Below are positions 2,044 to 50,096 of a stretch of DNA of 50,096 nucleotides, piece by piece. A model generated the notes under the pieces. That model was not told where the DNA came from and did not search any database. It saw nothing but the letters and a program-made list of their open reading frames with translations. The stretch covers positions 1 through 50,096 of IMG/VR virus record IMGVR_UViG_3300046738_000023. One strand, 5' to 3'. The stretch's first letter is position 1. Each line of letters starts with the position of its first letter. The DNA is from a virus. Its lineage: Duplodnaviria > Caudoviricetes. Made by a program: the position numbers and the translations under genes.

Positions 2044-3363
2044 ATGAGCAGCGTGTCGGAAGTCGTCAACGTAACGATCGAGATCAAGGATGCCGCCGTC
2101 TCGCAGGAAGGCTTCGGCACTCCGCTCATCGCGGGCTATCACACGTACTGGCCCGAACTGGTGCGGACCTTCTCGGACGCCGACGAGATGACGCTCGCGC
2201 CGATGAATATGCCGACCACCCATCCGATCTACCGCACGGCGCTGGCGCTCAAGTCCCAGAAGCCGTGTCCGCCGCAGTACAAGGTCGGCAAGTGCACGGG
2301 CGTCACCACGCAGATCGTCAGCCTCACCCCGAGCGCGCCGACTGCGGGCGAGGTCTTCAAGCTCGACGTCGACGGCGTGGCGGTGAGCGTCACCGCGGGC
2401 GCGACGCCCACCCTGGTCGAGATCACCGCCGCATTGGCTGCGGGCATCGACGACGTGCCGGGCCTGACCGCGGCCGATGGCCCAACCGCTGTCACTGTGA
2501 CGAGCGACGTGCCGGGCGTCGTCCATCGCTACGAGAACCTCTCGCCGAACCTCGCCATTGAGGACACGACCGCCGACTCGGCGACGGGCATCGCGACCGA
2601 TCTTGCCGCCATCCGCGGCTATGACGCCGACTGGTACGGCCTGCTCCTGGACGGCAGCAGCGAGGCAGTCATCCTCGCCGCCGCCGCATGGGCCGAGGCG
2701 CAGCGCGTGATCCTGTTCGTCAATCCCAGCGACTCGGAGATCAAGAGCGGCTCGGTCACCGATGACGTCGGCAGCGCCCTGCAAACCGCTGGCTATAGCC
2801 GGACGGTGGTGCTCTACCACAACAAGCCTGCTCAGTGCGCCGCGGCCGCATGGGCGGGGCGCATGCTGCCCAAGGCGCCGGGCTCTGCGACGTGGGCCAA
2901 CAAGAGCCTCGCGGGCGCGGATAAGTCGCCGCTCAGCGACACCGATCGCGGCGTTCTCAAGGAGAAGAACGTCAACTACTACGTCGACGTCAAGGGGATT
3001 GGCTTCACGCTTGACGGGCGCGCGGCGAGCGGGCGTTACATCGACATCACGCACGGCATCGATTGGTTCGACGCGCGCACCAGCGAGCGCATCGTGGCGC
3101 TGCTCGCCAACAACGACAAGGTGGCCTACACCGACAAGGGCATCGAACTCGTCCGCGCCCAAGTGCTCGGGCAGATCCTCGAGGGCATTAGCGCGACGCT
3201 GATCGACGGCGACTCGCCTTACTCGGTGACCGTGCCGAAGGTCGCCGAGATCAACCCCAACGATCGCACCGCGCGCGTCCTGCCCGACGTGAAATTCAGC
3301 TTCGTGCTGCAGGGCGCGGTGCACAAGGTGCTCATCAACGGCACCGTCCGCACGGCTCTGTAG
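2044..3363 (+). CDS. Tail sheath protein (DUF3383 family)
   Basis: GGAGG SD; GFGTPLI, PGSATWANKSLAG, GRYIDITHGIDW and YTDKGI motifs. Confidence 0.9.
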   Translation: MSSVSEVVNVTIEIKDAAVSQEGFGTPLIAGYHTYWPELVRTFSDADEMTLAPMNMPTTHPIYRTALALKSQKPCPPQYKVGKCTGVTTQIVSLTPSAPTAGEVFKLDVDGVAVSVTAGATPTLVEITAALAAGIDDVPGLTAADGPTAVTVTSDVPGVVHRYENLSPNLAIEDTTADSATGIATDLAAIRGYDADWYGLLLDGSSEAVILAAAAWAEAQRVILFVNPSDSEIKSGSVTDDVGSALQTAGYSRTVVLYHNKPAQCAAAAWAGRMLPKAPGSATWANKSLAGADKSPLSDTDRGVLKEKNVNYYVDVKGIGFTLDGRAASGRYIDITHGIDWFDARTSERIVALLANNDKVAYTDKGIELVRAQVLGQILEGISATLIDGDSPYSVTVPKVAEINPNDRTARVLPDVKFSFVLQGAVHKVLINGTVRTAL

Positions 3364-19448: not shown

Positions 19449-21344
19449 CTATGTGCGCCGACGCGGCGACCGCTTGACGGGGGCAGCTTCGCCGCTCGCC
19501 GAGCCGTTGGAACCGTTGATTACCGCCGCCAGTTCGCGTGCCTGCTGGACCTCGTGCGGACCGCCGGAGAGCACCTTCGCCGCGAGTGCGGGCGCCGGTT
19601 CGGCGAGCACCGCGAGGGCCAGCGGGCGGGGGTCGCATGCCTCGCCACGCGCAAAGGCTTCAAGGAACTCGCGTGCCAAACGCAGCGTTTCCGCCCGGAG
19701 TTGCCCACCGTTGCCTGCATGTTGCCTGTGGCCTTGTAAGTGCTCGAAATCGCTTGCTGAACTCATGCTTCCTAAGCCGTTGGTCGGAGGTTCGAATCCT
19801 CCCGGGAGCGCTAAGGATTTCAAGGAGTTAGCCGACGAACCCGCAGAAGCCGCAGGCAACTCCTGGGCAACTGTTTTTGGCGTTCGTAGGCCGTGGGTGG
19901 TGAGCCGTGCAGCCTCGAGGCGTGCTTCGGTCGTCAGACTCGCGTAGCGCTCCTGCGTCACCTTGATCGATGAGTGGCCGAGGAACTTGGACACCTCCTC
20001 GATGGTCCACTTGCGCCCCCACGTGCCGCTCAGCAGGTGAGTCGCCGCGGTGTCGCGCATGTCGTGGAAACGGACCCGCCTCGACATCCTGAGTCGGCGC
20101 CACCACCCGAGCCGATAGAACGTCTGTTCGGGGTGGTCGGCCCAGCCCCAGTCGTAGCCCTCTTTGTACCGGGCCGGCTCGTGCACGGGGATCACTCGTG
20201 CCCTGTCCTTTGCGCGGTAATCGGCGACTTGGCCGACCGTCAACGCGAGGCCGGCTGCCTTGGCTCGATCGACAACCTCCGCATTCGACACCTCATCGGC
20301 TTGCGTGCGAACGAATGCGCGTTTGGCTCCGGCGCGTGGCCCGGGGTGGGTCGCTGGGAACATGACGCCAAGCGTCGGCTTCCCGCGCAGCGCCCACCAC
20401 TTCCGCAGAAACATCTCGGCACGCGGGAGGAGCTCCTGCTGTCGGGCCTTGCCCGCCTTCGGTGTCCGCTCCCAGCTTTGCGCGATCCGCCACGTCTTGT
20501 TCCGCCAGTCGACGCGCTCCCAGTTCATGCCGGCGAGCTCACCTTCGCGCGGGCACTGATGCACCGCCATCACGAACGCCGCGCGCTTCTCGAACGGCAG
20601 GTGTGGGCAGCGCGCTAGCATTTCGATGTCGTACTCGTCCTCGTACGACGATTCTGAAGCTGCCAAGCACAGCACGCATGAGCACAGCTTTTCGACGTCG
20701 TCGCCAGACAGGTACGTCACCCCCTCGTCGATCGCATCGTGCGGTTTCGCAATGGAGAGCCCGTCTGTTGGGTTGGCCGTGAGGTGCTCTGGTATGCCGT
20801 AGCCGAAAATGAGTCGAGCGAGCGTGAGCGCATGGACCTGGGTCTGCCAACCGACGAGCTCGTCGAGTTCGATCGTTAAGCGTTGACCATCCCTGCGGAT
20901 GCTACGGGCCTTCCGAGTCACGCGCAGCGTCTTGAGCCACTTCTTGCACTCGGGCCCGTCAATCTGTTCGACGGGCCAGTCGGCGAAAGGCACGGTGCGC
21001 AGCACAATGGACTGCCATCGGTTGTTCGTTGTGCGCTCGCTCTTACGTCCACGGAAGTCGAGCATGTACGCGTCGCCAAGTTGCCGGAAGGTGATGCCAC
21101 CAACACGATCGCCACGAGTAATCAGCGCCGCGTTCTGAACTCGCTTGGCCTTCTCGAACGCTCCGCACGCACAGGTCTCAAAACCACGCTTGGCGAACCG
21201 CGCCTGAGCGGGCGCCGGGCAACTGCATGGATAGCGGCCGACCGTCTTGTACTTGCGCTTGCCGATCGGGATGCGGACGCGGAACTTGCCGTCCTCGAAC
21301 GAAATCGATCCCAGTCCGTAGGTGCTCTGCTTTGGTTTCGGCAT
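19449..21344 (-). CDS. int: Tyrosine integrase
   Basis: R.GEL, TPK, FHDMRDT, LGHSS and ERYA catalytic motifs. Confidence 0.92.
   Translation of the reverse strand: MPKPKQSTYGLGSISFEDGKFRVRIPIGKRKYKTVGRYPCSCPAPAQARFAKRGFETCACGAFEKAKRVQNAALITRGDRVGGITFRQLGDAYMLDFRGRKSERTTNNRWQSIVLRTVPFADWPVEQIDGPECKKWLKTLRVTRKARSIRRDGQRLTIELDELVGWQTQVHALTLARLIFGYGIPEHLTANPTDGLSIAKPHDAIDEGVTYLSGDDVEKLCSCVLCLAASESSYEDEYDIEMLARCPHLPFEKRAAFVMAVHQCPREGELAGMNWERVDWRNKTWRIAQSWERTPKAGKARQQELLPRAEMFLRKWWALRGKPTLGVMFPATHPGPRAGAKRAFVRTQADEVSNAEVVDRAKAAGLALTVGQVADYRAKDRARVIPVHEPARYKEGYDWGWADHPEQTFYRLGWWRRLRMSRRVRFHDMRDTAATHLLSGTWGRKWTIEEVSKFLGHSSIKVTQERYASLTTEARLEAARLTTHGLRTPKTVAQELPAASAGSSANSLKSLALPGGFEPPTNGLGSMSSASDFEHLQGHRQHAGNGGQLRAETLRLAREFLEAFARGEACDPRPLALAVLAEPAPALAAKVLSGGPHEVQQARELAAVINGSNGSASGEAAPVKRSPRRRT
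19767..19811 (+). other. attP core: 3' half of tRNA-Arg(CCT), inside int
   Basis: Anticodon loop TTCCTAA, T-arm GGAGG-TTCGAAT-CCTCC and acceptor 3' strand; no matching 5' half. Confidence 0.85.
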
Positions 21345-30402: not shown

Positions 30403-31578
30403 ATGAAGATCCCGCTCACGGACATTCGAGTTGGCCGTCGCCACCGCAAGGACATGGGCGATCTCGATGCCCTGCTCGAGTCCGTGCGCACGCTCGGCAT
30501 GCTGCAGCCGATCGGGATCACACCGGAGAAGCAACTGGTGTTCGGACAGCGCCGGTTGAAGGTTGCCAAGGCGCTGGGCTGGGAGACGATCGAGGCGCGC
30601 CTGGTGCGCGTCGACGCGCTTATTGCCGAGCGGGACGAGAACGAGATCCGCAAGGAGTTCGCGCCCAGCGAGCGCGTTTCGATCGTCGAGGCCATCCGCG
30701 AGCGCATCGGCAAGCGGCAGGGCCACCGGACGGATCGACTTCCGGATAAGTATCCGGAAGTTCCGCCCGGCACAGAGACCCGCGAGTTCGCCGCTGCGGG
30801 TGGCGGCTTTGAGAGCGACTTCACCTACCGCCAGGCCAAGGCTGTGGTGGAAGGCGGCGTGCCCGAGTTGGTGCGCGCCATGGACAAGGGGGTGCTGTCG
30901 ATCAGCGCTGCGGCCAAGTTGGCAGAGCGCCCCCAGGCCGACCAGCAGCGCGTCGCGACAGCCGTGCTGAGCGGCGAGGATGCCCGCAACGCCATGCGCG
31001 AGCTGCACCGCGACGAGCGGATCGCACGGCTCGCACAGATCGTGAAGGGCAACGCCGGTCTCAACGGCGGCGTCGGACTGCACCCGATCATCTACGCCGA
31101 CCCGCCGTGGCGCTACGAGCACGCTGAGTCGGCCACGCGCGAGATCGAGAACCAGTACCCGACGATGGAGCTCGACGAGATCTGCGCATTGCCAGTGGCG
31201 GAGGTGTGCACCGACGACGCGGTGCTGTTTCTGTGGGCGACGTCGCCCAAGCTCGCCGAGGCGCTGCGCGTCGTCGAAGCGTGGGGCTTCACGTACCGGA
31301 CGTGCATGGTTTGGGACAAGGAGCGCATAGGCATGGGCTACTACGCCCGCCAGCAGCACGAGCTCCTGCTGATCGCCACCAAGGGAGAGCCGCCTGCACC
31401 GCCGCCCGAGGCACGCCCGGCAAGCGTCATACGGGAGCCGCGCGGTGGGCACAGCCGCAAGCCCGAGTGTTTCTACGAGATCATCGAGCGGATGTACGGG
31501 CCGCTGGCCAAGCTCGAACTGTTCTGTCGTACGCCGCGTCCGGGCTGGAAGGTGTGGGGCAACCAAAGTGCTGCATGA
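30403..31578 (+). CDS. ParB-like domain fused to MT-A70 family N6-adenine methyltransferase
   Basis: GMLQPI..G.RRL ParB box; IYADPPW, LFLWAT, GMGYY.R.QHE, HSRKP and ELF.R motifs. Confidence 0.9.
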   Translation: MKIPLTDIRVGRRHRKDMGDLDALLESVRTLGMLQPIGITPEKQLVFGQRRLKVAKALGWETIEARLVRVDALIAERDENEIRKEFAPSERVSIVEAIRERIGKRQGHRTDRLPDKYPEVPPGTETREFAAAGGGFESDFTYRQAKAVVEGGVPELVRAMDKGVLSISAAAKLAERPQADQQRVATAVLSGEDARNAMRELHRDERIARLAQIVKGNAGLNGGVGLHPIIYADPPWRYEHAESATREIENQYPTMELDEICALPVAEVCTDDAVLFLWATSPKLAEALRVVEAWGFTYRTCMVWDKERIGMGYYARQQHELLLIATKGEPPAPPPEARPASVIREPRGGHSRKPECFYEIIERMYGPLAKLELFCRTPRPGWKVWGNQSAA

Positions 31579-33285: not shown

Positions 33286-33527
33286 CTCGAGCCGAGCTCA
33301 CGGCCGCCGAGTTCGAGGCCAACGCGCACGAAGCGTTCATTGCGCTGCGCGAGCACCTCACCGCCGCCGAGTTCGAGTTCGTGCTGCGCGTGTTTCACGA
33401 ACACTATGAACGCGCGGCGCTGCTCGTCGCTTCGCGTCGCGGCGAATGGCTGTCGCACAAGCAGTTCGCGCTGTTCTTCCTGGACGTGGCCAAGCGGATC
33501 GATCGCGAGGGAGGCACGCCGTCATGA
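33282..33527 (+). CDS. Hypothetical protein
   Basis: ATGA overlaps on both sides. Confidence 0.55.
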   Translation: MTRAELTAAEFEANAHEAFIALREHLTAAEFEFVLRVFHEHYERAALLVASRRGEWLSHKQFALFFLDVAKRIDREGGTPS

Positions 33528-34951
33528 GCGACATGTCTCGCGGCCTGAACTTCCCGCACGACGACAACGCCGAGCGCGCAGTGCTTGGCTCCGTGCTGCT
33601 CGACGCACGCGAATGCTGGCCCGCAGCTTCCGAGCTCTTGCGCTCAAGTGACTTCTTCGCGACGCGTCACAGCGAGATCTGGCGCGCCATGTCAGCGCTC
33701 ATGCAGTCGGGCAGCGCGATCGATCTCGTGCTCTTGCAAGGCCAGCTCGTGACAGCCGGCAAGCTCGAGCTCGCCGGTGGCGATGAGTACTTGCTGTCGC
33801 TCACCGAGACGATCCCGACGACGCACAACACCACCCTCCTGGCCAAGCGCGTGCACGACTTGGCATTGATCCGCGAAGTCATGCGCGGCGCGCTCAGGCT
33901 CGCGGCAGAAGGGGGCGAGCCGATCGACGACGTTGCGGACTACCTCGACCGCGCGAGTACGGCGCTGAGTTCGATCACGGATCGCCGCGCTACCCAGCTC
34001 GACGTCACGTCGATCAGCGACGCGCTGCACAAGAGCTACAGCGATCTCACGCGCCGGCAGCTCGAGGGCCAATCGCTGCTCGGCCACTCGACGGGCCTGC
34101 GAGCGCTCGATCACGCGTGCAGCGGTTTTGTGCCGGGCGATCTGATTGTGATCGCGGGCCGCCCGGGCATGGGCAAAACTTCGCTGGCCAACGAGATCAA
34201 GCTCGGGATCGTGCGCAGCACCGGGCAGGCTGTGCTGTCGCTCGAACTGGAAATGAGCGGCGAGCAGCTCACGCACCGCGTGCTCGCGTCCGAAGGCGGC
34301 GTGAACCTGCGCCACATTCGCTCGGCGCAGTTGAGCAGCGACGAGCTGCGGCAGTTGGCGATCACCGCCGACGAGCTCTCGCGGCTGCCGTTGTTTTTCA
34401 TCGAGCGCCGGCTCACGCGCGTGTCTGAACTACGCGTCGCAGCGCGTCGCTTGCAGGCTGAGCGCGGCCAGCTCGGCGCGATCGTGTTCGACTACTTGCA
34501 GATCGGCCGCCCCGAGCGAAGCCATGCCCAGCGCGAGCGCGAGGTGGCGAGCATCAGCGCCGATCTGAAGTCGCTCGCCGGCGAATTCCGCTGCCCGGTG
34601 TTCGCGCTCAGTCAGCTCAACCGCAGCGTCGAGTCGCGCTCAGGCCACGAGCGTCGGCCACGGCTATCAGACTTGCGCGAGAGCGGCGCGATCGAGCAGG
34701 ACGCCGACACGGTGATCTTTGTGCACCGCGAGGAAGTCTACGACCCCAAGACGCCGCTGCAGGGTATCGCCGAGCTGATCATCGCCAAGCAGCGCAGCGG
34801 CCCGCTCGGCACCATCCAACTCTCCTGGCAGGGGGCGTTCACGCGCTTTGGCAACCTGGGGCCGCAGCACGATCACGAGCAGCAGGAGTCGTTCGGCTAC
34901 GACGAACCGCAGCAACCACCACACCGCAGCAACGGGAGAGCCCACCCATGA
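33524..34951 (+). CDS. dnaB: Replicative DNA helicase
   Basis: AERAVLG, GRPGMGKT, DYLQ, LSQLNR and LSDLRESGAIEQDAD motifs. Confidence 0.95.
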   Translation: MSDMSRGLNFPHDDNAERAVLGSVLLDARECWPAASELLRSSDFFATRHSEIWRAMSALMQSGSAIDLVLLQGQLVTAGKLELAGGDEYLLSLTETIPTTHNTTLLAKRVHDLALIREVMRGALRLAAEGGEPIDDVADYLDRASTALSSITDRRATQLDVTSISDALHKSYSDLTRRQLEGQSLLGHSTGLRALDHACSGFVPGDLIVIAGRPGMGKTSLANEIKLGIVRSTGQAVLSLELEMSGEQLTHRVLASEGGVNLRHIRSAQLSSDELRQLAITADELSRLPLFFIERRLTRVSELRVAARRLQAERGQLGAIVFDYLQIGRPERSHAQREREVASISADLKSLAGEFRCPVFALSQLNRSVESRSGHERRPRLSDLRESGAIEQDADTVIFVHREEVYDPKTPLQGIAELIIAKQRSGPLGTIQLSWQGAFTRFGNLGPQHDHEQQESFGYDEPQQPPHRSNGRAHP

Positions 34952-35274: not shown

Positions 35275-35419
35275 TCGCGAGTGGTGCCTGGACTGCACCG
35301 CCGACCTCGAGACTGACGGCGTCACGTGGCGTTGCAGGCCGTGCGGTCGTGGCGGGCGGTACATGATCGCGCCCAACGGCTGGCGCGTGCGGGTTGTCAC
35401 CAAGCAGGTGGCCGCATGA
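35264..35419 (+). CDS. Small Zn-ribbon protein
   Basis: CLDC...CRPCG; GGAGG SD. Confidence 0.5.
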   Translation: MPADREWCLDCTADLETDGVTWRCRPCGRGGRYMIAPNGWRVRVVTKQVAA

Positions 35420-36057
35420 GTGAGCCCGCCCGCGACCTCTTCGACGAGCCGCTCGAGCCCGCGGCCACCTGGCGCGCGCCACTGCTCGGCGAGTGCGTGC
35501 TCGGGATCGATCCGTCGCTCACCGGCTTTGCGATCTGCTACTCGGTGCCGGGCAAGGCGCTGATCGAGGGCAGGTGGGCAAGCAAGCCCTGCGACGGCGT
35601 GCGGCCCAGACTCGCCCGCTACGAGCAGCTCATTCGCGGCACGCTCGAGATCGTGCTCGCGCAGCAGCCGTCGCTGATTCTGATCGAGGCGTACGCGTAC
35701 GGCGCACGCGGCGGCATGCAGTTCGATCGCACCGAGCTCGGCGGCGTTCTTCGGCTCGAGCTCATCCGCCGCACCGAGGTCGAGGTGCCGATCATCGAGC
35801 CGACGCCGAGCACACTGAAGAAGTTCACGACAGGCAGTGGGCTCGCCACCAAAGACGCCATGGTGAGCACGCTCGCGAAGAAGCACCAGCGCGTGTTTCG
35901 CACCGACGACGCGGCCGACGCGTTCGCGTTGTGTCAGCTCGGCCTCGCGCTCACCGGGCAAGTACCCGCGCCGTCCACCAAGCCCGAGCGGCTGTACTTG
36001 GCGAAGCTGCGCAAGGACTTCGGCTTGGAGCGCGCGGCCTCGGGAGGTGCAAGGTGA
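35416..36057 (+). CDS. RuvC-like Holliday junction resolvase
   Basis: LGIDPSLTG, LIE.Y, LKKF.TGSG.A.K and DD.ADA motifs. Confidence 0.85.
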   Translation: MSEPARDLFDEPLEPAATWRAPLLGECVLGIDPSLTGFAICYSVPGKALIEGRWASKPCDGVRPRLARYEQLIRGTLEIVLAQQPSLILIEAYAYGARGGMQFDRTELGGVLRLELIRRTEVEVPIIEPTPSTLKKFTTGSGLATKDAMVSTLAKKHQRVFRTDDAADAFALCQLGLALTGQVPAPSTKPERLYLAKLRKDFGLERAASGGAR

Positions 36058-37857: not shown

Positions 37858-37992
37858 ATGACCCCCGATCCCGAGTCGTCCGAACCGTCACCAGTGCCCG
37901 AGCCCGAGCCCGAGCCCGAGTCGCCAGTGCCCGACCCCGATCCCGACGAGCAAGAGAAAGCCGCGCTCGAGCGGCCGAGTTCGGAGCGCTGA
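37858..37992 (+). CDS. Acidic Pro-rich peptide (44 aa, not in the ORF track)
   Basis: AAAGGA SD; PEPEPEPE and PDPDPD repeats. Confidence 0.4.
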   Translation: MTPDPESSEPSPVPEPEPEPESPVPDPDPDEQEKAALERPSSER

Positions 37993-38040
37993 CTCTGCGA
38001 CCCCGCGCGGCATGCGGCAGTGGCGCCGCGCGGGGCGTTA

Positions 38041-38114
38041 TGCGGCTTCACCGGGACGGTGGGCGAGGTTTCATCGAGCCTACGCGACTGGGTTCGACTC
38101 CCAGAGCCGCAACC
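38041..38114 (+). tRNA. Non-canonical tRNA-like gene, anticodon CAT
   Basis: Acceptor TGCGGCT/AGCCGCA; D-arm CACC-GGGAC-GGTG; loop TTCATCGA; T-arm CTGGG-TTCGACT-CCCAG; ends ACC. Confidence 0.75.
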
Positions 38115-38200
38115 GAGCGCAGCGCCCCGGGGTGTGGTGCCGCAGGAGATCTGCGGCCGGGCTGTGCGATCCCCTTGAATCAGACCGGGGAGCTGCGCTC

Positions 38201-38398
38201 ATGAGCGACGATAAAGAGAGCGGGATACAGAGCTCGATCAGCGCACAGCTCTACAAGCTGCGCAGCGAGCAGCGAGCGCGTGTAGAGCGCCAGGTTCGGC
38301 GTCGCATGGTGATCGTGGCCTTGCTGATGGCGGCCATGCTGCTGCTGTTTTGCGTGGTGGTCGCGCTGCTGACGCATGCCCTCGAGGCGCCGCCATGA
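38201..38398 (+). CDS. Small single-TM protein
   Basis: GGGGAG SD; C-terminal hydrophobic helix. Confidence 0.55.
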   Translation: MSDDKESGIQSSISAQLYKLRSEQRARVERQVRRRMVIVALLMAAMLLLFCVVVALLTHALEAPP

Positions 38399-38799
38399 CG
38401 CCCGCCGAGCGCGACGAGAGCTTCGTGTGCCCCAAGTTGCACAGCACCATCAGCCGCGGCGACTGTGCTGCGCGCCACGTCCGTTACGCCAGCCGAGCGG
38501 CCTCTACCAACGGCGTCGCGGGGTGTTGCTGTAGCGTCTGCCCGATTGGCGCAGAGCACGCACGGGGCGTTCGCGCCCTGCACGTGCAGCTCGCGGTGAT
38601 CGTGCCCAAGCCGAGCCGGCGCAGCTACCGGCCGCATTTGTGCGTGGGGTGCGGGCTTCCCGTGCCGCAGCCGAGCGTCCCTCGGCGCGACCGAATGTGG
38701 GGGGCACAACTTCGCAATGTCTGTGGGCCTAGCTGCGCGAGTCTGGCGCGGAGCTTCGAGGGCCAAACGTTTGAACTGCAACTGCCCGAGTGGGCGTAG
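38395..38799 (+). CDS. Cys-rich hypothetical protein
   Basis: C..CPIG..H, CVGC and CGPSC motifs. Confidence 0.55.
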   Translation: MTPAERDESFVCPKLHSTISRGDCAARHVRYASRAASTNGVAGCCCSVCPIGAEHARGVRALHVQLAVIVPKPSRRSYRPHLCVGCGLPVPQPSVPRRDRMWGAQLRNVCGPSCASLARSFEGQTFELQLPEWA

Positions 38800-42516: not shown

Positions 42517-43019
42517 ACGCGAAGCGCAAGCGGTTCGTGCTCGAGTACCTCGTTGACATGAACGGCACCGCCGCCGCTGTGCGCGCTGGCTACAGCGTCA
42601 AGACCGCCAAGGAGAGCGCGTACCGGATACTCCGTAACCCGAGCGTCAAGAAGGAGCTGAGCAGGCAGATGGCTGCGCTCGCCGGGCGCCTCGAGATGCG
42701 CGCCGAAGACGTGGTGCGCGAGTACTGCAAAATCGCGCGGGCTAACATCACCGACTTTCTCAGCTTTGGCCCGGGCGGCGTGGACATGAAGGAGTCCGCT
42801 GAGCGCACGCCCGACCAGCTTGCGGCGATCGCCGAGGTCCGAATGGCGAGCACCGCCACGGGCAAGTCGGTGTCGCTCAAGCTTCACAACAAGACCGACG
42901 CGCTGCTCGCGCTCGGCAGGCACCTCGGCATGTTCATCGAGCGCCACGACGTGCGCGTCGACGGCAAGGCCGAGGTGCGGTTCTACCTCCCTGACAATGG
43001 CCGACGTCCCGGAACATAG
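42492..43019 (+). CDS. terS: Terminase small subunit
   Basis: RFVLEYLVDMNGTAAAVRAGYS and K..AL..LGRHLGMF motifs. Confidence 0.9.
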   Translation: MAGRKQPLNAKRKRFVLEYLVDMNGTAAAVRAGYSVKTAKESAYRILRNPSVKKELSRQMAALAGRLEMRAEDVVREYCKIARANITDFLSFGPGGVDMKESAERTPDQLAAIAEVRMASTATGKSVSLKLHNKTDALLALGRHLGMFIERHDVRVDGKAEVRFYLPDNGRRPGT

Positions 43020-44421
43020 CCCGCCGCTCGAGATCCGCCCCCAGGACGGATCGCAAGAGCGATTCTTGTCGAGCACCGCGGACATGGTGTTCTACGGCGG
43101 CGAGGCGGGCTCGGGCAAAACCAGCGGGCTTGCGCTCGAGTGCCTCCGCAACCATGACGTCAAGGGGTTTGCCGCGATCTGCTTTCGTCGCACGAGCAAC
43201 CAGCTCAGAGGGCCCCAGTCCCTGTGGGAGCTGATGCAGGAGTGGTACCCGGCGCTTGGGGCCGTACTGCGCGAAACCCCCAACCCCTCGGCGACGTTCC
43301 CGAGCGGTTGCACGGTGCAGCTCGATCACCTGCAGTACGACGCCGACAAGCTCAAGCATCAGGGCAAGGGCTACGGGCTCATCAACTTTGACGAGCTGCC
43401 GCACTTCCTCGAGAGCCAGTTCTGGTATCTCTTCAGCCGCAATCGCAGCACCAGCGGGGTTGCGCCCTACGTGCGTGCGACGATGAACCCCACCGCGGAC
43501 ACCTGGGTCAAGAAGATGATCGAGTGGTACCTCGACGAGCGCGGCGAGTTCATCCGGCCCGAGCGGTCGGGGGTGATCCGGTACTTCTACCGAGTGGACG
43601 ACGAGCTGGTATGGGGCGACTCCGCCGAGGACCTGCTCACGCGCTATCCGCATCTGACACACCCGCCCATCAGCTTTACCTTCATTCTGGGCTACCTCGC
43701 CGACAACAAGATCATGCTCGACAAGGACCCGGGCTACCGCGCGCGCCTCATGGCGTTGCCCAGGGTCGAGCGCGAACGGCTGCTTGGCCACGGCAAAGGA
43801 GGCAACTGGCTCATCCGGCCCGCCGCCGGGCTGTACTTTCGGCGCGGGTGGTTTCAGCTCGTGGAGGTAGCGCCCACCGACCTCGTCGCCATCGTCCGCG
43901 CGTGGGACAAGGCTGCTAGCCAGGTGACGCCCGAGCGCCCGGACCCGGACTGGACGCGCGGGGTCAAGATGGGGGTGACGCGCACGGGGCGCTTTGTGCT
44001 GCTGCACATGGAATCGCTGCGCGGCTCACCCCACCAGGTCGACCGCGCCATGCAGAATATCGCTGCCCAGGACGGCGCGCTCGTCAAGATCTGCATCTGG
44101 CAGGACCCGGGTGCGGCGGGCGTCCTGGACGTGGCCCACACCAAGAGCATCCTCGCCGGCTACCGGGTGGAGTCCGTGGTGGCGCGCCAGGACAAGGTGA
44201 CCTATGCGGGGCCGTTCTCCACCCAGGTCGAGGCCGGTAACGTAGACGTGGTGGCCGGCCCCTGGAACGAAGCGTTCTTTGCTGAGCTCGAAGGGTTTCC
44301 CGACGGCGCCCACGACGACATTGTGGACGCCTGCTCGCGGGCGTTTCTGGCTCTTCACAAACCGAGCGTCCTCGCATACCAGACCGCCATGGACGCGATC
44401 AAGGTGGAGCTCCTGTCATGA
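42997..44421 (+). CDS. terL: Terminase large subunit
   Basis: YGGEAGSGKT, FDEL, RATMNP, RAWD.A and FPDGAHDDIVDA motifs. Confidence 0.95.
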   Translation: MADVPEHSPPLEIRPQDGSQERFLSSTADMVFYGGEAGSGKTSGLALECLRNHDVKGFAAICFRRTSNQLRGPQSLWELMQEWYPALGAVLRETPNPSATFPSGCTVQLDHLQYDADKLKHQGKGYGLINFDELPHFLESQFWYLFSRNRSTSGVAPYVRATMNPTADTWVKKMIEWYLDERGEFIRPERSGVIRYFYRVDDELVWGDSAEDLLTRYPHLTHPPISFTFILGYLADNKIMLDKDPGYRARLMALPRVERERLLGHGKGGNWLIRPAAGLYFRRGWFQLVEVAPTDLVAIVRAWDKAASQVTPERPDPDWTRGVKMGVTRTGRFVLLHMESLRGSPHQVDRAMQNIAAQDGALVKICIWQDPGAAGVLDVAHTKSILAGYRVESVVARQDKVTYAGPFSTQVEAGNVDVVAGPWNEAFFAELEGFPDGAHDDIVDACSRAFLALHKPSVLAYQTAMDAIKVELLS

Positions 44422-49303: not shown

Positions 49304-50096
49304 ATGCTCGTGCAAAACCAAACACTGTCGCCCCTCAGCCGAGACCAGATCGCGGGCGAGCTCAGCCGGCTTTCGAGCGAGCGCCTCGACGCCGCCGAAG
49401 TCGACCGCATTTACAACGCGATGATCGTGCATCGCGCCGAGCTCTACGGCGCCGATCGTCTCGACGCCAACGAGACCATGATCCTGCAAAACCAGCTCGA
49501 GCAGATGCGCGCGCGCTCTGTTGACGTGCAGCGCCCCGAGTTCAAGGCGCGCAGGCTCGTGCCCGTCACGAGCGAGATCGACCCGGGCGCCGAGTCCTGG
49601 GCGTACTCGGTTTGGGATCGCGCCGGCATGGCCAAGATCGTCGCGAACTACGCCGATGACATTCCGAAGGTCGCGACGTTCGCCAGGAAGTACACCCACA
49701 CCATCGAGAGCATCGCGCTCGGGTATGAGTGGAGCTGGCTGGATCTCCTCCGCACGGCTCGCGCCGGTGTGCCGCTCCGGGCCCGCAAGGCCGACGCGGT
49801 GCGCACGGGCTTCGAGCAGAAGATCGAAGAGATCGCCGCCCTCGGCATCAAAGAAACGGGCGTCACCGGCCTGCTCAACAATACCAACGTACCGCAAATC
49901 AACGCGGCCCCGCCGGCCACAGGCACTTCGGCCGCATGGGCCGGTGGCGACAAGACGGCGTCCGAAGTCCTCGCCGACCTGCTCGCCATGGAGGACGCGG
50001 TGATCAGCACCACCAAGGGCGTGCTCAGCCCCGACACGCTGGTGCTGCCGCTGGCTCAGTATCGCTACATCAGCCGGACGCCGCTCTACACCGTCG
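49304..50096 (+). CDS. Major capsid protein, N-terminal part (DUF2184-type)
   Basis: AAGGAG SD; G.AKIVANYADDIP.V, G..GLLN..NV and PDTLVLP motifs; runs off the window end. Confidence 0.9.
   Translation, partial: MLVQNQTLSPLSRDQIAGELSRLSSERLDAAEVDRIYNAMIVHRAELYGADRLDANETMILQNQLEQMRARSVDVQRPEFKARRLVPVTSEIDPGAESWAYSVWDRAGMAKIVANYADDIPKVATFARKYTHTIESIALGYEWSWLDLLRTARAGVPLRARKADAVRTGFEQKIEEIAALGIKETGVTGLLNNTNVPQINAAPPATGTSAAWAGGDKTASEVLADLLAMEDAVISTTKGVLSPDTLVLPLAQYRYISRTPLYTV

Follow-up and report, generated by a model that had tools for sequence, protein, structure and literature searches.

The tRNA-like element and its predicted fold

The window analysed here is an entire IMG/VR virus record (IMGVR_UViG_3300046738_000023) of 50,096 bp, with 66% G+C and a CheckV completeness of 100%. 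It carries a tRNA-like element with the anticodon sequence CAU at 38041-38115. The element sits in a 208-nucleotide (nt) gap (37993-38200) of a long plus-strand operon, between the replication/recombination genes and the packaging genes; tRNA genes of phages are typically placed between these two modules. In the element numbering used below, index 1 is 38041, and the parts are as follows.

38041-38111, plus strand: tRNA-like body of 71 nt, from the 5' to the 3' strand of the acceptor stem (sequence, RNAfold, covariance model)
38041-38047 and 38105-38111, plus strand: acceptor stem, TGCGGCT with AGCCGCA, 7/7 Watson-Crick pairs
38048, plus strand: single linker base T
38049-38052 and 38058-38061, plus strand: D stem CACC/GGTG with the 5-nt loop GGGAC
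38062, plus strand: single base G after the D stem
38063-38085, plus strand: anticodon arm, a bulged 7-bp stem and an 8-nt loop
38070-38077, plus strand: 8-nt anticodon loop TTCATCGA (UUCAUCGA as RNA), with CAT at 38072-38074
38086-38087, plus strand: 2-nt variable region GA (AA in the homologues)
38088-38104, plus strand: T arm CTGGG/TTCGACT/CCCAG
38112-38115, plus strand: discriminator A38112, then CCG (ACCA in all 15 homologous loci)

The layout named in a preliminary description of this locus (a perfect 7-bp acceptor, a canonical T arm, a 1-nt linker, a 5-nt D loop, a bulged anticodon stem, an 8-nt loop and a 2-nt variable region) is present in the sequence in every part. The accompanying remark that no CCA is encoded holds for the terminal A, which is absent, but not for the CC, which is encoded (A-CCG). 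The anticodon stem consists of the pairs G-C, C-G and G-C, the bulged A38082, and the pairs A-U, G-C, G-C and U.G, and the loop stands under this last, U29.G38, closing pair. Compared with a canonical elongator tRNA, the acceptor (7-bp stem and discriminator base) and the T arm (5-bp stem, 7-nt loop with the TTCRA consensus) are of the usual form. The two canonical linker nucleotides (8 and 9) and the D loop of 7-11 nt are replaced by one linker base and a 5-nt loop, and the anticodon arm of the window copy departs from the canonical set of a 5-bp stem, a 7-nt loop, U33 and a purine at position 37.

The minimum-energy structure given by RNAfold is this same four-way junction (-35.9 kcal/mol, z = -3.38), and 0 of 200 shuffled sequences were as stable. 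RNAfold also narrows the D loop of the window copy to 3 nt and zips its anticodon loop to a CAUC tetraloop, with probabilities of 0.92 for U30-A37 and 0.76 for U31.G36 (element numbering), by which pairs the loop would measure 6 or 4 nt instead of 8; this extra closing of the anticodon loop is predicted for the window copy only and not for its homologues. The sequence of the element was reproduced without a single difference in contigs of three other metagenome runs (X3, X4 and X5; soil or rhizosphere), which cover it in full or in part, and it is therefore not an assembly error. Since the four DNA runs compared gave the identical sequence only, they provided no near variants for covariation. 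A search for sequencing runs with this DNA turned up no RNA run.

A compact tRNA(CAU/UAU) family in related phages

Relatives of the RuvC-like resolvase of this phage were found at seven loci, and in 2/6 of the close relatives ARAGORN reported a tRNA gene about 2.5-3.3 kb downstream: a tRNA-Ile(tat) in L003 and a tRNA-Met(cat) in L007, each 74 nt long with the anticodon at position 32. Both align with the window element from the first to the last base. Motif scans of IMG/VR and the JGI metagenomes raised the count to 15 homologous loci on 12 distinct contigs, with five distinct sequences (family members include G001, G002, G003, L010 and L089), all carried by uncultivated soil and rhizosphere phages. 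The 15 loci and the window have in common the 1-nt linker, the CACC/GGTG D stem, a GGGNN D loop, the G-C and C-G pairs outside the bulged base of the anticodon stem, the 2-nt variable region, the TTCGACT T loop, the acceptor top U1-A72, G2-C71, C3-G70, G4-C69, and the discriminator A. Because the reduced D arm, the bulged stem and the short variable region occur in all members, the compact core is a family trait and not damage.

In all 15 homologous loci the anticodon loop has 7 nt (CUCAUAC, UUCAUAC or UUUAUAC), an A follows the anticodon, and ACCA is encoded. Four variants have the anticodon CAU and the fifth has UAU, all with discriminator A. The UAU variant belongs to G001 (L003 8960-9033); its body is near-identical, with four changes that all fall in the anticodon arm, and its occurrence suggests that the family may decode AUA. 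At the bottom of the anticodon stem three variants carry an A.C mismatch, and in one variant the top pair is replaced by U.U; according to PMC13092985, 4-bp anticodon stems are the commonest kind in bacterial elongator tRNAMet(CAU).

One copy is present in each of the two relatives with complete genomes, G001 (45.6 kb) and G002 (47.4 kb). The element occupies the same genome region as in the relatives, while its order relative to the downstream gene for a 65-amino-acid (aa) protein differs: in L003 the homologue of this open reading frame (ORF) lies upstream of the tRNA. The family is sporadic, with no element within 6 kb of the resolvase gene in L002, L004, L005 and L006, and none within 3 kb at 8/10 loci that have the Cys-rich 134-aa neighbour gene. 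No close relatives were found when they were sought through the 134-aa upstream and 134-aa downstream neighbour proteins, and an exact 24-nt T-arm/acceptor pattern had 0 matches in IMG/VR. The D-arm plus T-loop motif, which was the sole search for a host tRNA of such shape, gave 73 stretches in 185,579 species' genomes and no family member among them. About 48 of these 73 matches lie by chance in one conserved coding sequence of Nonomuraea and related Streptosporangiaceae, a trap for motif-based searches for tRNA-like elements in high-G+C genomes.

Family membership of the window copy and compensatory changes

A covariance model (R2) built from the five other variants, with the window excluded, matches 38041-38115 end to end (model positions 1-74) with 54.6 bits and an E value of 7.7e-12; the next best match in the window reaches 15.8 bits. 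In the MAFFT alignment of the six sequences, 95.7% of the cells of 23 pairs are paired. Between the window and the clade formed by the others, nine pairs have changed on both sides and are still paired, three in the acceptor stem (5-67, 6-66 and 7-65), three in the anticodon stem (26-41, 27-40 and 29-38) and three of the five in the T stem. Nine double changes were reached by 0 of 500 shuffles, and slid controls gave 0-2. The D stem is identical in all six variants and so provides no covariation evidence. These compensatory changes in phage homologues are what the preliminary description had proposed to look for, and they bear out its argument that the intact stems speak against simple decay. 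The nine compensations represent one branch and not nine independent lineages. Compared with the wider viral CAU tRNAs that share the acceptor top, the window pairs 6-67 and 7-66 look derived, which suggests that part of the compensation, at least, arose in the lineage of the window copy itself.

Identity to the homologues amounts to 53-57 of 75 positions inside the element and 36-51 of 75 in the 75-nt flanks. Shuffled sequences averaged 44 and reached at most 52. Conservation ends at the borders of the element. From these comparisons the window copy is a true, divergent member of the compact phage tRNA(CAU/UAU) family.

Anticodon loop and 3' end of the window copy

Within the family, the 8-nt loop UUCAUCGA and the ACCG end were found in the window only, against the 15 loci. 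The alignment shows that CAU and the two U's preceding it line up, that one base is inserted after CAU, and that A-C-C has become C-G-A-G, while the stem pairs below the rebuilt loop are compensated and the helix from junction to loop still has 7 bp. As a result of the rebuilding, the anticodon is followed by C (position 37) where every homologue has A. At the 3' end, the terminal A of CCA is G. Of the oddities named in the preliminary description, just two are specific to the window copy, namely the 8-nt loop and the absence of the terminal A, and these may be either a specialisation or the first step of decay.

A search of IMG/VR for the window-type loop motif beside a T loop gave 30 stretches without a family member; the best, with 30.6 bits, are other tRNA-Met genes. 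One weak tRNA-like match with a similar loop (L241, 25.5 bits) lies inside an ORF.

Genomic surroundings of the element

A PHROG scan of 61 ORFs supported by G+C at third codon positions (GC3) describes a temperate, contractile-tailed, myovirus-like phage, in which baseplate, portal and head genes were identified besides the following features.

2044-3360: tail sheath gene (PHROG)
19452-21344, minus strand: 631-aa tyrosine integrase (PHROG, Pfam PF00589)
about 28.5-29.4 kb: repressor pair (PHROG)
33446-34948: DnaB-like helicase (PHROG)
35326-36054: RuvC-like resolvase (PHROG)
37858-37992, plus strand: 44-aa Pro/Glu-rich ORF of uncertain gene status, upstream of the gap
37997-38038, plus strand: GC-rich hairpin with an 11-bp perfect core and no U tract after it, between the 44-aa ORF and the element
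38115-38200, plus strand: long hairpin with imperfect pairing; its 3' arm takes in the GGGGAG ribosome-binding site immediately ahead of the ATG at 38201
38201-38398, plus strand: 65-aa membrane-protein ORF, downstream
42820-44418: large terminase (PHROG)

The phage is distant from cultured ones: a 4-kb query found no DNA-level match among cultured phages, and the large terminase is less than 47% identical to that of any of them. The fold of 37993-38201 indicates that the whole gap is structured, with the hairpin, the element and the long hairpin in succession (z = -3.79). Consensus scans found neither a sigma-70-like promoter nor a terminator in the gap, and the hairpin at 37997-38038 was not called a terminator. 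The hairpin at 38115-38200 may control translation of the 65-aa membrane ORF, as judged from its predicted pairing. Matches to this ORF (begun at 38201) in tblastn start at residues 1-5; because its homologues align from its first residues, the element is non-coding.

Several features of the neighbouring sequence were recorded in passing. The 44-aa ORF consists mostly of Pro-Glu/Pro-Asp repeats (hexanucleotide CCCGAG), with 37884-37948 flagged as a repeat, and has a plausible AAAGGA ribosome-binding site. The 134-aa Cys-rich protein at 38395-38799, for which neither Pfam nor PHROG gave a match, contains 10 invariant cysteines, some of them in a GCCC motif, and an equally invariant QLPEWA at the C-terminus; it is kept in all relatives, whether the tRNA is present or not. 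A 391-aa ORF (30403-31575) joins PHROG matches to a ParB-like nuclease and a DNA methyltransferase. The gene for the major head protein appears to be split over the record ends (49304-50095 and 34-285), the last ORF matching positions 22-226 and the first ORF positions 259-321 of PHROG 264; with the capsid gene cut in this way, the 'linear' record looks circularly permuted or circular.

Codon usage and frameshift screen

Only one sense codon is rarer than AUA in each of the three complete genomes (23/14292 codons in the window, 19/13320 in G001 and 16/13772 in G002). The frequency of AUA is 1.61 per 1000 in the window against 1.43 and 1.16 in the relatives with normal loops. Because AUA has this rank in all three phages, codon usage cannot separate a working copy from a dead one. 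It is plausible, by analogy with known decoding, that the family serves AUA and/or AUG, with CAU acting as a Met or a lysidine-modified Ile2 anticodon and UAU as an AUA reader.

A screen for genes that would need a frameshift, which used GC3-supported genes and covered those with a homologue in G001 or G002 and sites not shared by all three phages, found 0 of 80 matched G001/G002 proteins (127 queried) split over two window frames. An initial version of this screen with all ORFs had flagged 11 pairs; the one examined proved to be an Arg-rich ORF in the wrong frame, with an alignment at the DNA level.

Interpretation and rival explanations

According to these analyses, we give about even chances to the reading that the element is a structure-preserved, decoding-impaired descendant of a tRNA(CAU) gene, which folds and is processed like a tRNA but is not a normal triplet decoder. 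The ancestor would be of the Met/Ile2 type, with UAU in one variant of the family. The element would be transcribed within the long rightward operon of the temperate myovirus-like phage and released by the tRNA-processing enzymes of the host, by RNase P at the 5' end and by trimming at the 3' end, after which the host would complete CC to CCA. In its history all four helices have been retained through compensatory changes while the 3' half of the anticodon loop was rebuilt. Decoding is probably impaired, given the pyrimidine at position 37 and an enlarged loop predicted to pair within itself.

A number of points weigh against this reading. CAU, the U that precedes it and a helix of 7 bp all survived the rebuilding; a working decoder needs these features, so that decoding may not have been lost. 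An 8-nt loop is compatible with triplets in yeast mitochondrial tRNAThr(UAG), according to PMC7609411. Thermodynamic closing of anticodon loops predicts poorly when tRNAs are modified. With a CCA-adding enzyme present, the missing terminal A is not a handicap, and the viral CAU tRNA L154 likewise ends in ACCG. All nine compensations trace back to one divergence, which separates the window from one tight clade; they testify to past selection on the fold and not to present selection. Transcription, processing and the loss of normal decoding, finally, are steps that we infer from the DNA.

Two other identifications of the locus were weighed. By default, ARAGORN calls a 92-nt class II tRNA-Ser(gga) with a long variable arm at 38020-38111. 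This call takes the 3' arm of the 11-bp hairpin (37997-38038) as its 5' acceptor strand and includes a G.A acceptor mismatch; when the hairpin is removed the program switches to Glu(ttc), the homology starts exactly at 38041 with unrelated sequence upstream, and the homologue-based model aligns with the whole of 38041-38115. We rejected this candidate, which we consider very improbable. On the element alone, ARAGORN makes no call with default settings and gives a tRNA-Glu(ttc) with mismatches with relaxed thresholds or in mitochondrial mode; its calls on the window copy (Ser-GGA, Glu-UUC) are unstable. Rfam at gathering thresholds has no match in the element, the best sub-threshold scores being 16.2 bits for tRNA-Sec (cut-off 47) and 16.9 bits for mascRNA, both over 38041-38111, and its tRNA models miss the homologues as well (best seen 17.4 bits, tRNA-Sec). 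An ARAGORN search for transfer-messenger RNA (tmRNA) found 0 tmRNA genes, and the element has a full anticodon arm, unlike the tRNA-like domain of tmRNA. A fragment or a copy of some host tRNA gene, retained as the attP core, would suit a temperate phage with a tyrosine integrase, and many integrases target the 3' ends of tRNA genes. However, the integrase gene lies about 17 kb away on the minus strand, the complete 5' acceptor strand and all four arms are present, and none of the 73 motif stretches in species' genomes is a family member, which leaves this origin scarcely probable.

Two further explanations accept the family membership and differ in the function they assign. The element could be a working, specialised decoder, either a Met/Ile tRNA whose loop, changed 3' of the anticodon, resists host anticodon-loop nucleases while AUG or AUA is still read, or a +1 frameshift or quadruplet reader at AUG sites. 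The fold, CAU, the preceding U, the discriminator A and G2-C71/C3-G70 are all kept, as is the 7-bp helix to the loop despite the rebuilding, and with AUA so rare and one homologue carrying UAU the family is plausibly there for AUA/AUG. There is precedent for mutations of phage tRNA loops at nuclease cleavage sites (PMC10264068), for +1 frameshifting by loops with an extra nucleotide (SufB2, SufJ) and for triplet decoding by an 8-nt loop in yeast mitochondria (PMC7609411). Against this stand the C at position 37 in place of the A of all 15 homologous loci, the predicted collapse to a tetraloop, the frameshift screen without a split protein, the lack of a second occurrence of the odd loop in the family among the 30 motif stretches, and an AUA usage like that of the relatives with normal loops. 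Modification of A37 is moreover important for codons beginning with A. We hold such a decoder to be possible, though with limited confidence, and its narrower form, a working phage tRNA with a Pyl-like or mitochondrial-like core that is nuclease-resistant by insertion next to 37 or reads +1/quadruplets at AUG sites, to be distinctly improbable. The suggestion of a specialised Met/Ile tRNA is sustained as to ancestry, the homologues being ARAGORN tRNA-Met(cat) and tRNA-Ile(tat) genes, while normal decoding is disfavoured with no purine at position 37. Alternatively, a non-decoding, tRNA-shaped RNA might be kept for its fold, as a punctuation mark at which RNase P and 3'-end enzymes would cleave the polycistronic transcript between the upstream genes and the 65-aa ORF, or as a decoy or sink for a tRNA-binding host factor. 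This would agree with its place inside an operon, where it has neither a promoter nor a terminator consensus to itself and is flanked upstream by a strong hairpin and downstream by one that masks the next ribosome-binding site, and with the perfect preservation of the acceptor and T arm, which RNase P and the CCA enzyme need and which are the only parts aligned by the Rfam mascRNA model. But a processing signal would require neither an invariant D arm nor a compensated anticodon stem, and a nuclease decoy should mimic a real anticodon loop, which the window loop does not. The flanking hairpins, as judged from 12-nt flanks, are not common to the homologous loci, and the element is absent from 4/6 close RuvC-related loci and 8/10 loci with the Cys-rich neighbour; since so many relatives lack it, expression of the operon is independent of it. 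We regard a role of the fold alone as unlikely.

Should the decoding-impaired descendant prove inactive, it would be an example of a tRNA gene dying from the loop outwards and of a relic that gene finders mis-assign (Ser-GGA or Glu-UUC for CAU). Should it be active, it would be a rare natural tRNA with an 8-nt loop outside mitochondria and would allow nuclease evasion or frameshifting directed by the virus to be tested directly, at a time when phage tRNAs are discussed as counter-measures to tRNA-cleaving defences besides codon supplements. In either case, the locus yields a small family of soil-phage CAU/UAU tRNAs whose compact core escapes the Rfam tRNA models and is found by ARAGORN.

Comparison with known tRNAs and tRNA-like RNAs

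The nearest known tRNAs are viral. Among the matches listed for viral stretches with the acceptor/T-loop pattern of the window, ARAGORN reported tRNA-Met(cat) in 80 of 99, with at least 64 distinct sequences. These CAU tRNAs (U1-G2-C3-G4 ... C-G-C-A72-A73) share with the window the acceptor top, the discriminator A, CAU and the T loop GGTTCGANTCC. In the 64 sequences among the matches listed, all loops have 7 nt, and most D arms are normal (anticodon at 33-37), whereas the D region of the window's family is 2 nt shorter, its anticodon is at position 32, and the loop of the window itself has 8 nt. The acceptor top of this viral class (L106-L199; U1-A72 on G2-C71, C3-G70 and G4-C69, with discriminator A) is that of the bacterial initiator tRNA, but with position 1 paired, and in 14 of the 64 sequences among the matches listed the bottom of the anticodon stem is made of three G-C pairs, a feature of initiators. 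One CAU tRNA, L125 1962-2038 (minus strand), has the non-standard loop UUUCAUAA of 8 nt, which a closing U-A pair would reduce to 6 nt; the ARAGORN label is tRNA-???(ca), and this is the sole loop other than 7 nt among the 99 stretches examined from the matches listed. Two high-G+C viral CAU tRNAs (L171 629-701 and L188) combine the anticodon loop UUCAUAC on an uninterrupted 7-bp stem with a 2-nt variable region, a 5-bp D stem and a 4-nt D loop. They show the compact layout independently, and it therefore recurs.

The likeness to tRNAPyl and mitochondrial tRNAs that the preliminary description had seen concerns the secondary-structure layout and does not extend to descent or function. According to PMC7609411, tRNAPyl and mammalian mitochondrial tRNASer(UCN) have 1 nt between acceptor and D stem, a D loop of 5 nt, more than 5 bp in the anticodon stem and a very short variable region, and the tRNAPyl of M. 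alvus has an unpaired base within the anticodon stem. The family of the window resembles them in these features, with an anticodon stem of 7 bp and a bulge against 6 bp in the compact tRNAs compared. Unlike tRNAPyl, which is marked by CUA, the loss of G18G19 and of the T-loop consensus, and PylRS, it has retained the T-loop consensus and the GG of the D loop and has CAU/UAU as anticodon, and no PylRS-like or other synthetase-like gene turned up among the 61 ORFs scanned against PHROGs. The vertebrate family model of mascRNA (RF01684) aligns only to the acceptor and T-arm minihelix, below its gathering score of 42.5 bits, while the window element has full D and anticodon arms.

The extra nucleotide in the anticodon loop is shared with SufB2 and SufJ, in which it leads to +1 frameshifting, and with yeast mitochondrial tRNAThr(UAG). 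With its 8 nt the window loop is enlarged in the manner of +1 frameshift suppressors; the screen of proteins matched in G001 or G002 found no gene in need of a frameshift. These three tRNAs are proven decoders, derived from mutated Pro or Thr tRNAs or mitochondrial; the window element has a pyrimidine at position 37. Van den Berg et al. (eLife 2023, PMC10264068) report that phage tRNAs are mutated in the anticodon loop, at or close to the positions cut by anticodon nucleases. The anticodon loop is likewise where the window copy chiefly differs from its relatives; the changes are an insertion and the loss of A37, where the nuclease-evading tRNAs in the published cases considered have substitutions in a 7-nt loop.

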